Shown: piece after piece, positions 147 to 53,728 of the stretch
Position numbering within the stretch: the first letter of the stretch is position 1
Layout: every line of letters starts with the position of its first letter
Source: Eledone cirrhosa
Lineage: Eukaryota
Reading direction: 5' to 3'
Length of the DNA: 64,000 nt
Assembly (NCBI GenBank): GCA_964016885.1
Contig: OZ024763.1
Coordinates: forward strand, 24,490,001-24,554,000
Notes under the pieces: generated by a model
Seen by the model: the letters and a program-made list of their open reading frames with translations, nothing else
Told to the model about the DNA's origin: nothing
Databases searched by the model: none
Translations under genes and position numbers: made by a program

Positions 147-506
147 GGAGGTGAGTTTTATTGTAGCACAATAAAGCAATGCAAATATCGGATAAGTAGC
201 ACTCTACAGTTTGTAGGACTGGAGTATACATAATATAAGATCAAAAGATTATTATGTGAACATATTATTATGCGCATTTCAAAAACAACTATCATCATGA
301 GATGATATCTGCGTTTTCATCAGATAAAATAGAGATGATATGTTGATTTAAAAGTTCACTATTCACAAGTGTTTTTTAAGCTTCATATCATAGATCCCTA
401 TTTTATCTGATGAAAACGCAGATATCATCTCATGATGATATTTGTTTTTTAAATGCGCATAATAAAATACTTGGAACTCTTTTAACCATCTTTTGATCTT
501 ATATTA
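147..506 (-). mobile_element. Fold-back HHR-bearing element (family B-related), PLE-derived, in (TA)n
   Basis: Diverged inverted arms at ~231-340 and ~385-506, plus an unpaired tail at 147-230. TA tracts on both sides. HHR core in both arms. Confidence 0.7.
262..331 (-). ncRNA. Type I hammerhead ribozyme motif
   Basis: Minus strand reads tattttat CTGATGA aaac...gttttt GAAA TGCGCA TA ataata, with palindromic stem III ATGCGCAT. The mirror copy at 399-469 (+) has TAAA in place of GAAA and a perfect stem I tattttat/ataaaata. Confidence 0.7.
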
Positions 507-1318
507 AATATATATATCTATATATCTATATATATATATATATATATATATATATATATATATATATATATATATATATATATATATATATATATATATA
601 TATATATATATATATATATATATATATATATATATATATATATATATATTTGTGCATATGTGTGTGTGTGTATATATATATATTTGTGCATGTATATATA
701 TATATCCGATCCAAATATGGAAGCGTGTCAGGTGTTATGAGCTGTGTGAGAAAATCACTTTTTTTTTTCAAATCATAGGGCTCCCACCCCCTCCTGTCCC
801 TCCTCCTGCCCCTCCTCCTCCTCATCATCATCATCGCTACAAGCATAATCTTCCTACACCTCCTCCATCTTCTCTTCTACATTAAAGTCACACTTACCGC
901 CCCCTCTCTCTCCCTCCTATTCTCTCTTTCACCCTCTCTCTCTTTCTCTCTCTCTTTCTCTCTCTCACTCTCTCTCTTTCTCTTTCTCTCGCTCTCTCTT
1001 TCTTCCTCCCTCACCCTCTCTCTCTCTCACTCCCTCTCTCCCTCTCTCTAACTCACTCTCTCACTCCACTCCACCTCTCTCTCTCTCCCTGTCTCTCGCT
1101 TGCTCTCACCCCCCCCTCTCTCCTAGATATCTTCAACTCCCCCTCCCCAGTCCGCCATCTTTCCTACCCGTGTGTGCCGCCATATTGTCGCCTTTATCCC
1201 CGTTTTTCCCCCTATTTTTCCTTTTTCCTTTTATTTTTCTCAAAAATGATTGAAACCTCCATTGCGCCATGAACTCCTTGCTGCCATGTGGGACACTTAT
1301 GGCACACACACACACACA

Positions 1319-1910
1319 CATGTACACCTAACCACATACACACACACACATGTACACCTAACCACATACACACACACACATGTACACCTAACAACACACA
1401 CACACACACATGTACACCTAACCACATATATACACACACATGTACACCTAACCACATACATACACACACATGTACACCTAACCACACACATACACACACA
1501 TGTACACCTAACCACATATATACACACACACATTCATACACACACATACATACACACACATGTACACCTAACCACATACATACATACACATGTACACCTA
1601 ACCACATACATACACACACATGTACACCTAACCACATACATACACACACATGTACACCTAACCACACACACACACACACATGTACACCTAACCACATACA
1701 TACACACACATGTACACCTAACCACATACATACACACACATGTACACCTAACCACACACACACACACACATGTACACCTAACCACATACATACACACACA
1801 TGTACACCTAACCACACACACACACACACACATTCATACACACACATACATACACACACATGTACACCTAACCACATACATACACACACATGTACACCTA
1901 ACCATATACA
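1319..1910. repeat. 30-bp minisatellite (tgtacacctaaccacatacatacacacaca)n
   Basis: About 18 tandem units directly visible. Confidence 0.95.
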
Positions 1911-3304
1911 CATACACACACAGACACATACACAGACAGACATATACACATTCATACACACCTATACACATTCATACACACCTATACACATGCATGCATA
2001 CACGCATTCATACACACACACATACACATATACACACACACATACATACACACACATACACACACATGTACACCTAACCACATACACACACACACATTCA
2101 TACACACATATACACATACGCACACAGACACAGACACACAAACACACATATACACATACACACATTCATACACACATATACGCATACACACACAGACACA
2201 TACACAGACAGACACATACACATTCATACACCCCTATACACATACATGCATACACGCATTCATACACACACACATACCCATACACATATACACATACACA
2301 CACGTCTATGAACAGATATGCACACATATTCATAGGCACACACTCACACATACACATACATACACATACACATATCGCGCACACACCGCACACAAAGATA
2401 CACACACAGAGCTCTGGCACGAATGCACACAAACACATATATATGTATATATATAAACACACCATAAGCATACACACACATACAAACACACTCAGACATG
2501 CACACACCATAATGTGCATGTGTATACATAAACACAATAGGAATTGTACTACAAAGTGTGTTACATATACACACATTAATGCATACATTACAGTAATAGA
2601 AAGGTGCACGCAGCTACTCAGAAAAAATTAATAAATTTGCATATATTTGCACCTGCATCTTACACACGTATTGTATGTGTGTATGTGTATATATGTATAT
2701 ATATATATATATATATATATATAATACACACATAAACACACACACACACTCACGCACATATATATATATATATATTTATGTATATATGTATGCATACATA
2801 TATATATATATATATATATATATATATATATATATATATATATATATAGGTGTATGAATACACGCGTATGAATATATATATGTATAACAAAACATATATA
2901 TATATATATATATATATATATATATGTATGTATACACACATACACATACGAACACAATACAATATAATTTATGTATTTGTATGAGTGTATGACACAGTGT
3001 GTATGTATATAATATATATTCGTGAGTGTGTGTGTTAGTGTGTGTGTGGGTGTAATATGTAAATATACTTCTTGAAAGATACCACCCCCTCCCCCTCCTC
3101 TAACGCCCCCTCCCCCTCACACCGAAATATTTAAATGAAATTAAAACCAAATTGAAAACAAAACGTCTGTTGATAAGATGAGAGAGACATCGTAAATGTA
3201 TTGAATAAATAGTTGTTACCATGGCGACAAATGTCTAATAATAATGATGATGATGATGATGACGATGACAACAATAGCCATAATAACATTGACAATAATT
3301 ATAA

Positions 3305-3500
3305 TAATTGTTTCTACTTTTGGTACAAGGCCAGCAATTACCCCAGTGCATTACTGGTACTTTATTTTATCGACCCCTGTAAGGGTAGGATGAAAGGCAA
3401 AGCTAACTTCGACGGGATTTGAAATCATAACTTATAGGGCCATAACTCTATGCCGCAAAGGATGGTGTCCGACGCTCTACCGATATTGCCCATCCCCCAA
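3305..3500 (-). mobile_element. SINE family D, diverged copy
   Basis: Matches the 18038-18223 copy (gtttctact...ggcacaaggccagcaatt...ggtactttattttatcgaccc...). Has an (AAT)n tail. Confidence 0.85.
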
Positions 3501-3514
3501 CCAATAATAATAAT

Positions 3515-3710
3515 AATGGTTTCTTATATAGGCGCAAGGCCAGCAATTGGGGGGGGGGAGTCTTTTAGATCAATCCCAGTGCATTACTGGTACTTTACTT
3601 ATCGACCCCTGTTAACCTCGGCGAGATTTGAACTCAGACCGTAAAGGGCCATTACTCTATGCTGAAAAGCATGCTGTCTGACCCTCTACCGATACTGAAA
3701 ATCCACCGCC
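3515..3710 (-). mobile_element. SINE family D, diverged copy in tandem with the previous one
   Basis: Same family, ending in ...atccaccgcc (the 5' end on the minus strand). Confidence 0.85.
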
Positions 3711-51800: not shown

Positions 51801-52977
51801 TATATATATAGACTTACATAAACACAGACTATATATATATATATATATATATATATATATATATATATATATATATATATATATATATACATATATATAT
51901 ATACATATATATATATTCATATATACATACATATATATAACCTTTCCAAACACACATATCGTACACACCCACGCACACAAAACACACACCTTACACACAC
52001 ACACAGGCTACACCCCCACACATACACACACTCGCTACATACACACACACACACCTTGGCCTAATCATAAACTACGTACCATCTACTCCTTTGCCTTCCT
52101 CCTCACTCACTCACTTCATTGCCACTCTTCACACCTCTTATTCTCACTCATACCAACACCCTTGCTGTACATTCTCCTCTATCTCGCTCCGTACCTCTTA
52201 CAGCCACCCACCACTCTCTGCTGCATCTACTCACCTCCCACTACACCTCCTCCTTCAATCTCCTCCGCACCACATCTCTACCTCCCACCACCCCTCATCA
52301 CCTCTTCGCTTTGTTTATTCAAATAATTATATCGACCTATTGTATTCAATTAGAGATTTCCTAACAACATAAAATGTAAATAGTTTGTATAATTCATCTT
52401 TGTTCGAAAATACACACACTTCTCTCTCCGTACACACACACACACACACACACACACACACACACACACACACACACACACACATCTCTCTCTCTACACA
52501 CACACACGCACACGCATAAACACACTTTTCTCTCCACAAACACACACACACTTCTCTCTCCACACACGCACTCACACACACACACAACACACACACTTCT
52601 CTCTCCACACACACACACGCATACACACACTTCTCTCTCCACACACACACACACACGCATACACACACACACATACACAACACTTCGCATTCCACATACA
52701 TACACACACATACACACTTCTCTCTCCACACACACACATACACATACACACACAATTGTCTCTCTCTTACACACACATACATACACACTTGGCTCTCCCC
52801 ACATACACACACACACTTCTCTTTCTCCACACACACATATACACATATACACACTTGGCTCTCTCCACACACACATGCACACACACTTGGCTCTCTCCAC
52901 ACAAACACGTCACTTCTCACACACATATATAACACATATGTGTGGGAGTCTGTAAACGTATAGGATATACATATAAC

Positions 52978-53158
52978 TGTTTCTACTTTAGGCACAAGGC
53001 CAGCAATTACCCAGTGCATTACTGGTACTTTATTTTATCGACCCCGTAAGGATGAAAGGCAAAGTCAACCTCAGCGGGATTTGAACTCGTAAAGGGACGT
53101 AACTATACTGGAAAGCATGGCGTCCGACCCTCTACCGATACTGCCAATCCACCGCCCC
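52978..53158 (-). mobile_element. Full-length SINE family D with 16-bp TSD, absent from the duplicate copy
   Basis: TSD aggatatacatataac at 52962-52977 and 53159-53174. Single empty site at 61768-61783. Confidence 0.95.
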
Positions 53159-53343
53159 AGGATATACATATAACACGCATACATATACCTCATATTTAAA
53201 CACACACACATATGTATGTGTATATAAATATATACATACATACATATATATATATATATATATATATATATATATATATATATATAGATAGATAGATAAA
53301 ATAACAGGCGGCTCGACTGGTGTAAATCCTTGAAAGGTTTATT

Positions 53344-53401
53344 ATACTATGATTATTTCAATGATTGGGTTCCATATGAATCCGGTGATATCATCAGGTA
53401 T
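53344..53401 (-). ncRNA. Hammerhead motif (duplicate at 61948-62005)
   Basis: ATAC CTGATGA tatcaccggattcatatggaacccaatcatt GAAA TAATCA TA^GTAT. The duplicate has palindromic stem III ATGATCAT. Confidence 0.6.
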
Positions 53402-53479
53402 TCGAAATATAATATAATATTCGAATATATATATATATATATATATATATATATATATGTGTGTGTTTGTGTGTGTGTG

Positions 53480-53728
53480 TAAAATCAAACATGTATACAC
53501 GTTATAACATATCCGAGGAGCTTCCGATTCCAGAGTCAGGTTCGATCATTAATAAATCGTTCCTCGAGCTGATCGACAGTGAAACATATGTAATACGTAA
53601 TGAAATATGTATATGATGCAACACTGATTTGTTGTTCTCTTATATATTAATACTATGCATACTCTGATACACAAGAGCATGGATTGCTCACTGGGTATAC
53701 CGCTAATGGACGGAACTGAGTTGCTCCT
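53480..53728 (+). mobile_element. Family F copy with long-stem-II HHR-like fold (duplicate 62100-62347)
   Basis: catat CCGAGGA gcttccgatt...gagctgatcgacagt GAAA CATATG TA atacg, followed by tgatgcaacactgatt as at 16103. Confidence 0.65.

Follow-up and report, generated by a model that had tools for sequence, protein, structure and literature searches.

Hairpin insertions and their parent elements

The window analysed here, a stretch of 64,000 nt from Eledone cirrhosa (contig OZ024763.1, positions 24,490,001 to 24,554,000, assembly GCA_964016885.1 of 3.0 Gb), has 33.5% GC and is rich in simple repeats. It carries many short hairpin insertions in (TA)n runs, as well as a truncated Penelope-like element (PLE) of the Hydra clade. 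The original prediction, made from the letters of the window, described several hairpin families with one layout: (TA)n, an unpaired tail, an arm, an inverted arm and (TA)n. Masked self-comparison recovered the listed palindromes and per-island alignment measured the tails, so that the layout was confirmed; it is present at 10 window sites, with one-sided tails of 77-92 nt in families A, B and F and at 147, and of 49 nt at 44498 (Table 1).

Some assignments had to be revised. Copies 11419, 36935, 41721 and 46319 do belong to family B, but the one at 147 does not cluster with them and forms a separate family. Of two singletons described as similar hairpins (15228 and 44505), the latter is a tailed hairpin (44498-44693), while the former is symmetric with tail-like arms (15264-15497). 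The G hairpin at 31291 has (GA)n/(TC)n on its flanks, within the TA runs, and the families behind four islands called non-palindromic (16809, 31102, 44862 and 53344) form tailed or inverted insertions elsewhere. The earlier survey had also overlooked two copies bearing an open reading frame (ORF), a 2.4-kb family A copy at 34095-36512 and another at 12953-14054.

Table 1. Coordinates of the hairpins, related insertions and ribozymes in the window ("unit", position in the family A tandem unit)
Feature	Position	Strand	Details
Family A, 5'-truncated Hydra-clade PLE	34095-36512	-	tailed main arm, unit 1374-3531, joined head to head with tail-less arm
Tail-less inverted arm of this copy	36260-36512	+	unit 3202-3454
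ORF remnant: reverse transcriptase thumb region, CxCX5C linker, GIY-YIG-type endonuclease	35377-36284	-	one frameshift near 35870
78-nt tail of this copy	34095-34172	-	ACTC...GAGT-AC motif at 34166-34143
Complete type I hammerhead, main arm	34187-34280	-	U3-A8 core, long stem II; predicted cut between 34192 and 34191
Complete hammerhead, inverted arm	36404-36497	+	
Family A short hairpin	15838-16049	.	tail 77; arms begin unit 3395/3396; hammerhead 3' half only
Family A short hairpin	17110-17302	.	tail 80; arms begin unit 3393/3398
Family A short hairpin	41483-41676	.	tail 77; arms begin unit 3395/3399
A-subfamily inversion, arms non-overlapping, not a palindrome	27231-27366	.	tail-less arm on -, tail alone on +
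Family A tail-only insertion	38289-38385	-	
A-subfamily single arms	12766-12883 and 26223-26381		
Family B hairpin	11420-12086	.	tail 11420-11508 (89); fold 11797/11798; complete hammerheads 11605 (-), 11990 (+)
Family B, arms asymmetric	36935-37257	.	tail 92; hammerhead 37158 (+)
Family B, tail at right	41724-42104	.	tail 90; hammerhead 41820 (-)
Family B hairpin, arms 99% alike	46317-46778	.	tail 92; hammerhead from relaxed scan
Separate family B0	147-507	.	tail 147-230 (84); hammerhead 323 (-)
Family F hairpin	16100-16419	.	tail 16330-16419 (90); hammerhead incomplete in window copy
Family F single arm with tail	53513-53727	+	
Family G hairpin, decayed	27084-27190	.	
Family G minimal hairpin	31292-31349	.	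holds 3' half of hammerhead
Family G hairpin, decayed	38820-38953	.	
Family G single arm with tail	42763-42895	-	carries ACTC...GAGT motif
Symmetric palindrome, tail-like arms with GCTC...GAGC	15264-15497	.	no hammerhead found
Tailed hairpin	44498-44693	.	tail 43-51 nt in 3 copies; no hammerhead or motif found
Island, U3-A8 hammerhead core, weak stem I	16668-16901	+	family tail 163 nt with motif
Island, minimal hammerhead (U4C)	30941-31180	-	
Island, hammerhead at 32877	32826-33000	+	
Island, hammerhead at 44911	44851-45006	-	
Island, hammerhead core, stems weak in window copy	45049-45309	-	
Island with hammerhead	53299-53424	-	family tail 140 nt with motif
Retrozyme-like unit, 366 nt + 90-nt direct repeat	43038-43493	-	5' end is the base directly after its own predicted hammerhead cut

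Family A positions are given on a natural tandem unit of 3531 bp (L031:5364-8894), and such 3531-bp units exist in the genome. A protein search of the genome with family A produced 150 scored matches (97-100%) from 63,857 candidates, with open frames up to about 784-819 aa. A 717-aa ORF of family A contains the YRDD and YIG motifs, RLRWR, SDKTG, CNCPDRSIC, CNLC and CKH; the family B ORF contains RIRWR, SDKTN, CNCRNKSNC (L094), CDLC and CRH. Both ORFs have the traits of the Hydra clade, i.e. an RWK-type motif, DKT in place of DKG, the CxCX5C linker, and CxxC and CxH flanking E and N, and by eye both lack CCHH. Both families also have a hammerhead in the pseudo-long terminal repeat (pLTR) and a (TA)n target. 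Pfam and PDB sequence scans of the family A ORF gave zero hits; its Atlas neighbours carry GIY-YIG, RVT_1 and HTH_animal. Family B lies directly upstream and downstream of a Hydra-type ORF (L181-L183). At the level of sequence, the motifs as described in the accessible part of PMC8557442, and a by-eye likeness to Hydra-1_Obim, show A and B to be the 3' ends of Hydra-clade PLEs with a reverse transcriptase (RT) and a GIY-YIG endonuclease. The predicted PLE origin thus stands for these two families, both of which run straight into RT + GIY-YIG ORFs, and so does the (TA)n targeting.

Family F was joined to one ORF family in three loci (L246, L247, inverted; L248, on the same strand with a TA-rich spacer), with no intact unit among them. 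In L200, F also seemed to be linked to an ORF, but the two are separated by a TA run and another hammerhead, and this case was rejected. Miniature inverted-repeat transposable elements (MITEs) have symmetric terminal inverted repeats and a fixed length; the hairpins have a one-sided tail, lengths from 0.1 to 7 kb and the ORF link, and any target-site duplication would be unreadable inside (TA)n. Nor are they tandem hammerhead units, as retrozymes are, being single inverted insertions. Automatic detection found 191 tailed insertions among 1,045 TA-bounded islands, falling in 42 clusters. We also observed 22 tailed palindromes in 200 kb near the window on C24 (L051-L070) compared to 11 in 200 kb of blind C1-C3 samples (L071-L090).

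In a descriptor scan of 32 kb of unmasked window sequence we found 9 complete type I hammerheads, compared to a mean of 0.1 (maximum 2) in 60 shuffles, and a relaxed scan added 31102, 53344 and 46319. The hairpins had been called ribozyme-bearing, with a hammerhead core or its 3' half in the arms of A, B, F and G. The window copies of B and the long A copy at 34095-36512 do hold a hammerhead, but for most short A, F and G copies the hammerhead is partial or decayed and the label is not supported. Short A copies begin inside loop II and keep only the 3' half. The window copies of F (16103) and G are incomplete or decayed; elsewhere the hammerhead is complete in 33 of the 72 hits to F and in 5 of the 34 hits to G. 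Scans of the 15228 family (7 copies) and the 44505 family (15 copies) found no hammerhead. Among the islands predicted to hold further hammerheads, 32874 and 44862 have complete ones and 31102 and 53344 have them by the relaxed scan, but in the window copies at 16809, 43126 and 45241 the core is present and the 3-bp stem I test fails (passing copies, 0/4, 0/5 and 1/8, respectively). The unit at 43038-43493 is a candidate non-coding passenger. Fold prediction for the family A hammerhead of L031 yields a three-way junction; whole-region folding z-scores were no better than those of shuffles. An Rfam scan of the window (E up to 5) gave 683 hits; the 150 best were microRNA- or small nucleolar RNA-like and below gathering, with no hammerhead family among these 150. 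Transfer RNA gene calling in the window found none.

Insertion ends, paired motif and fold points

Family A was mapped in the window and in other loci, some chosen for their ORF or for a pattern and others sampled blind (400 kb). Among 100 head-to-head joins, 78 united a tailed and a tail-less arm, one united two tailed arms and none two tail-less arms; 14 were cut by a locus edge and 7 were unclassed. The outer ends proved to be fixed, as had been predicted, at unit 3531 (tail) and unit 3454 (tail-less). In A and B the two positions lie 78-92 nt apart, each at a TA common to the target, and one of each was present in 78 of the 79 A joins with both ends classed.

The inner breakpoints of the two arms are independent in long copies. 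Where they lie more than 20 nt apart, the tailed arm was the longer in 12 copies and the tail-less arm in 5, the latter by 0.5-2.2 kb (L065, a misclassed short copy, was dropped). In 7 of the 78 joins the arms do not overlap: the tail arm starts at 3448-3460 and the tail-less arm reaches 3392-3394. The window copy at 27231-27366 has the same form, and raw reads contain 3394-3395/3448 joints. A single folding cDNA cannot yield the copies with a longer tail-less arm or those with non-overlapping arms, and simple fold-back, put forward originally, is not supported as the main route. At the C/T site 3431 the two arms agree in 63 of 65 copies, where half would be expected to differ, and in 50 of 50 listed exact-fold copies; five other sites gave 0-1 conflicts.

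Each fixed end is located 5-10 nt before a conserved RCTC...GAGY-RC motif. The motif occurs twice in each of A, B and L183, with TA-flanked ends just before each copy. In many tailed clusters RCTC lies within ~15 nt of the tail start and is closed by GAGY-RC, and the paired motif is visible in the published Hydra-2_Amil consensus end. In the 38 of 77 marine metagenome relatives whose matches reach the ORF start (some are near-duplicates), the motif was found upstream of the ORF in 28 and twice in 15, compared to 0.74 and 0.06 in shuffles. The outer pair of the motif was G-C in 37 cases, A-U in 8 and unpaired in 11 (n=56).

Exact patterns searched genome-wide gave 7,293 A folds at unit 3389-3399, 150 at the hammerhead cut, 78 at the 6-nt palindrome GAGCTC and 12 at an upstream control, numbers whose ratios are rough given the unequal pattern lengths. 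The fold points are thus less free than originally predicted, since short A folds shift by a few bases around one site (3389-3399); B folds are more widely spread. Still, the junctions differ between copies, which bears out the view that the palindrome forms at insertion and is not inherited like the terminal repeats of MITEs. The palindromes are also present in independent raw reads. In three other samples, strand-switch joints fall at the A fold site and the centres of B are likewise crossed by joints; the restriction-site-associated DNA (RAD) reads of these samples reach ~11,000-15,000-fold depth over 3404-3523 compared to 130-350 just upstream, with TA loose ends at both fixed sites and the strand-switch joints at 3390-3400. 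One contig of run X1 (possibly the source sample) spans the 11797 fold with zero mismatches; the RAD runs have zero depth there.

An extra G is the mark of an RT that has read an RNA cap. Where the letter before A3394 was not T, it was G in 64, C in 18 and A in 18 cases (hand count, first 100 of 2,044), and G/C/A in 36/10/16 of 62 after removal of rows with a G possibly from the partner arm. In L095 both arms carry the extra G. Long copies have T at this place in 21 of 22 cases and G in 0 of 22. TTAGTC and TCATTT sit at the fold site, which resembles initiator sequences. At the hammerhead cut, a hand count of the first 50 folds gave 21 with both arms ending at G3435 and mostly A/T filler, 19 flush and 10 reaching 3434 or past it; in another hand count, the longer arm ended at the cut in ~39 of the first 50 of 135. 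Fillers at 3435 are mostly A/T and the arms mostly lack C3434, which would fit an uncapped ribozyme product.

Proposed twin priming and competing explanations

We consider it probable that the hairpins are head-to-head products of Hydra-clade PLEs, made from two cDNAs that begin at two fixed sites of one RNA and are joined where they stop. In vitro, the Poseidon PLE PAc of Anolis nicks both strands and extends them, starting at two internal RNA sites, which bound the tail (accessible part of PMC11167929). Such two-site priming, combined with the end rules of family A, points to twin priming on one RNA. The PLE enzyme would nick both strands of the TA repeat, and two DNA copies would start at the two sites, each motif being bound by one subunit of a dimer. 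A trailing copy that displaces the leading one would leave a palindrome, while one that stops at the leading copy's start would leave a non-overlapping inversion; the two new 3' ends would then pair over a few bases, each priming second-strand synthesis on the other. With a promoter in the pLTR, both start sites would also lie near the capped mRNA 5' end, at distances of 60 and 138 nt. Priming so close to that end would run off at once and so would yield abundant non-coding stubs with a cap-templated G, and hammerhead-cut RNAs would give a smaller class ending at 3435. Long copies would join at random stops and stubs at the RNA 5' end. Full-length copies would require read-through RNA from a tandem; the genome has ~200 exact family A read-through junctions, which are possible sources of such copies.

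Two known processes are similar in part. In L1 twin priming both target strands prime on one RNA, and retroviral strong-stop DNA is a run-off at a capped 5' end. L1 twin-primed segments are non-overlapping and their second site is not fixed, unlike the insertions described here, where both sites are fixed and the arms usually overlap.

Several observations weigh against priming of both cDNAs on one RNA, or against parts of the scheme. In its accessible part, PMC11167929 reports no strand preference between the start sites, and this by itself gives no reason to expect one of each. The long loci were chosen by their ORF, and 3 or 4 of the 7 non-overlapping joins are diverged copies with uncertain alignment ends. 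Arms would also agree after fold-back, through gene conversion, or if only a single subfamily was active at any one time. In the youngest 21 copies the distance of an arm to its partner equals that to other copies (0.0036 both), and of 25 long overlaps, 14 had the partner arm nearer than every other copy, 7 showed a tie and 4 had the partner arm farther away. Start site, cap and ribozyme cleavage are all read from DNA. In unselected loci G was found in 5 of 21 arms reaching A3394 and 13 continue with the templated T, which indicates that starts are spread. The pile-up at 3435 is only twice the palindrome control and abuts stem III, where the enzyme could stall. For the inner stem of the motif, folding did not exceed that of shuffles (mean z -0.12, n=52), and the outer pair is complementary in 45 of 56, so that a sequence signal is no less possible than a hairpin. 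In 30 family G loci of 3 kb we found no ORF.

If one cDNA folded back (or primed itself on an antisense template) and was copied into the second arm, the tail being left or trimmed by the endonuclease, many near-perfect palindromes and the agreement of arms would be expected. This route is close to the proposal in the accessible part of PMC3846280. The longer tailed arm in 12 of 17 long copies fits it, as do the GAGCTC folds, clean in 44 of the first 50 (hand count). However, the first strand would have to be the longer arm and always have the same end type, and in 5 of 17 it is the tail-less arm that exceeds the other, by 0.5-2.2 kb; the 7 joins and the window copy without sequence common to both arms, and the extra G on both arms in L095, argue against it further. 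We regard fold-back as improbable. Twin priming on two separate RNAs, one per subunit, is similarly doubtful. It accounts for the independent breakpoints and agrees with the dimer predicted for PAc and with start sites that lack strand preference in the accessible part of PMC11167929, and the youngest copies give no power to tell templates apart. Yet it would have to be supplemented by a further rule to account for one of each end in 78 of 79 joins, tail arms that halt at the other start site suggest a common template, and the alleles agree in 63 of 65.

The fold positions could also have a cause other than RNA 5' ends: the enzyme may stall in stem II of the hammerhead (3389-3399) and at stem III (3435), both sites being in or beside predicted structure. 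We consider this unlikely. Position 3394 falls beyond the 3' strand of stem II, within the loop of that stem; G is in excess there as opposed to A/T at 3435; the arms mostly lack C3434, expected in a stall product; and TTAGTC and TCATTT at the site are initiator-like. That the hairpins are inherited non-autonomous palindromes, either MITEs or pre-formed hairpin RNAs, seems very improbable. Some short junction sequences recur and G was found without an ORF, but recurrence is expected from few-base annealing at one site. The ends are asymmetric and not of transposase type, lengths form a continuous series that extends to full ORFs, junction fillers are diverse and hammerheads are present, all of which is at odds with inherited palindromes; for A and B the ORF link refutes them. 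Palindromes and TA runs are error-prone, and the window holds a likely false 8-kb duplication. Nevertheless, an assembly or library artefact is refuted at the family level and has a negligible chance: raw reads from three other samples contain joints at specific positions, both fixed sites have TA loose ends, and the arms are 1-25% diverged.

Known systems, neighbouring repeats and implications

The inverted copy, one-sided tail, hammerhead and (TA)n bias have been published already (accessible parts of PMC8557442, PMC3846280 and PMC4209133). Class and layout are therefore known; what we add is the family members and a sharper, testable mechanism. Our literature search, with thin coverage of subscription papers, did not turn up any paper that describes twin priming, strong-stop stubs or a paired start motif for PLEs. 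As far as the accessible part of PMC8557442 shows, the Hydra clade, including Hydra-1_Obim, shares with our families a single ORF of ~715 aa, RW(R/K), DKT, the CxCX5C linker, the endonuclease CxxC + CxH, the hammerhead and the (TA)n target; by eye, family A is visibly alignable to Hydra-1_Obim in the supplement. The differences are a 3.5-kb unit in family A compared to <3 kb, tails of 78-92 nt (to 165) compared to 30-40, the U3-A8 core, the very high copy number, and the paired motif, which that part of the text does not mention. For PLE insertions with an endonuclease (EN+), the accessible parts of PMC8557442 and PMC3846280 describe the same architecture of an inverted 5'-truncated copy, palindromic junction and one-sided tail. 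They suggest endonuclease resolution or self-priming, whereas our counts point to two primed cDNAs and to run-off stubs being the most frequent product.

In the accessible part of PMC11167929, PAc resembles the elements described here in its AT-rich target, two internal RT starts and predicted dimer. It belongs to another clade, and that text gives no account of inverted joins; it reports no reads at the hammerhead cut, where we found 150 genomic folds. The PLE hammerheads in the accessible part of PMC4209133 are likewise type I with a U3-A8 variant, an extra base before stem II, a palindromic helix III and opposite-strand pairs 100-700 bp apart. Unlike these, family A has a stable, monomer-type stem III, and its 50-nt stem II domain holds the likely start site. 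In the octopus Octopus vulgaris, active Penelope and MITE families have been described, with hairpin anatomy absent from the accessible part of the account (PMC13282606).

Tandem arrays of retrozyme form were observed at three places (L327-L329; G000 C2:356.03 Mb, C3:214.15 Mb and C3:139.31 Mb) with units of 299, 273 and 226 bp. They consist of the family A pLTR and the first 100-124 nt of the next unit, L327 beginning at unit 3393, and are similar to the non-LTR retrozymes seen as PLE derivatives in the accessible part of bioRxiv 10.64898/2026.07.22.740005. The copy at 12953-14054 belongs to a second type of PLE. Its GIY-YIG remnant (13408-13767) is a different one, its arms are inverted, and its 58-60-nt tail lacks the paired motif; the right arm is missing ~200 nt that the left arm has. 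A ~220-nt family like short interspersed nuclear elements lies in TA runs (14267-14484, 36537-36922 and 42119-42332), one copy being inverted head to head. Its head resembles an A- and B-box, and it was possibly moved by the PLE machinery.

Other repeats include a TA-flanked 616-bp unit with a 226-bp direct repeat at 19445-20286, which has many relatives in other loci and in which the hammerhead scan found none. Another TA-associated family (10946-11215 and 45355-45609) has recurring fixed ends in other loci. A 320-bp family (26625-26945, 33096-33419 and 44256-44489) is 95-97% alike and does not have the hairpin layout, and a short palindrome at 42353-42460 is centred on a TA run beside the end of a hammerhead family (42425-42570). 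The segments 47300-55149 and 55350-63100 are a near-identical 8-kb duplication across a 200-N gap, and therefore the features at 53344 and 53513 appear twice; the duplication is probably a haplotype that was left uncollapsed during assembly.

The accessible parts of PMC8557442 and PMC11167929 call it an open question by what route PLEs, which are the closest relatives of telomerase RT, produce inverted repeats with a one-sided tail. Because family A is young and has thousands of copies, this question can be cast as rules that can be counted, with a specific RNA element, start site and ribozyme cut put forward. Taken jointly, the results allow a broader reading, which we judge to have an even chance of being right: a clade-wide duplicated signal would place two RT subunits on one transcript, every insertion being twin-primed and the tail equal to the signal spacing. 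Most copies would be strong-stop products made at the capped end of the mRNA, those folded at the hammerhead cut would record germ-line cleavage by the PLE ribozyme, and any RNA with the paired signal would be mobilised. If true, the twin priming model would explain how PLEs, a poorly understood class, insert. Many apparent MITEs in similar genomes may be PLE stubs.

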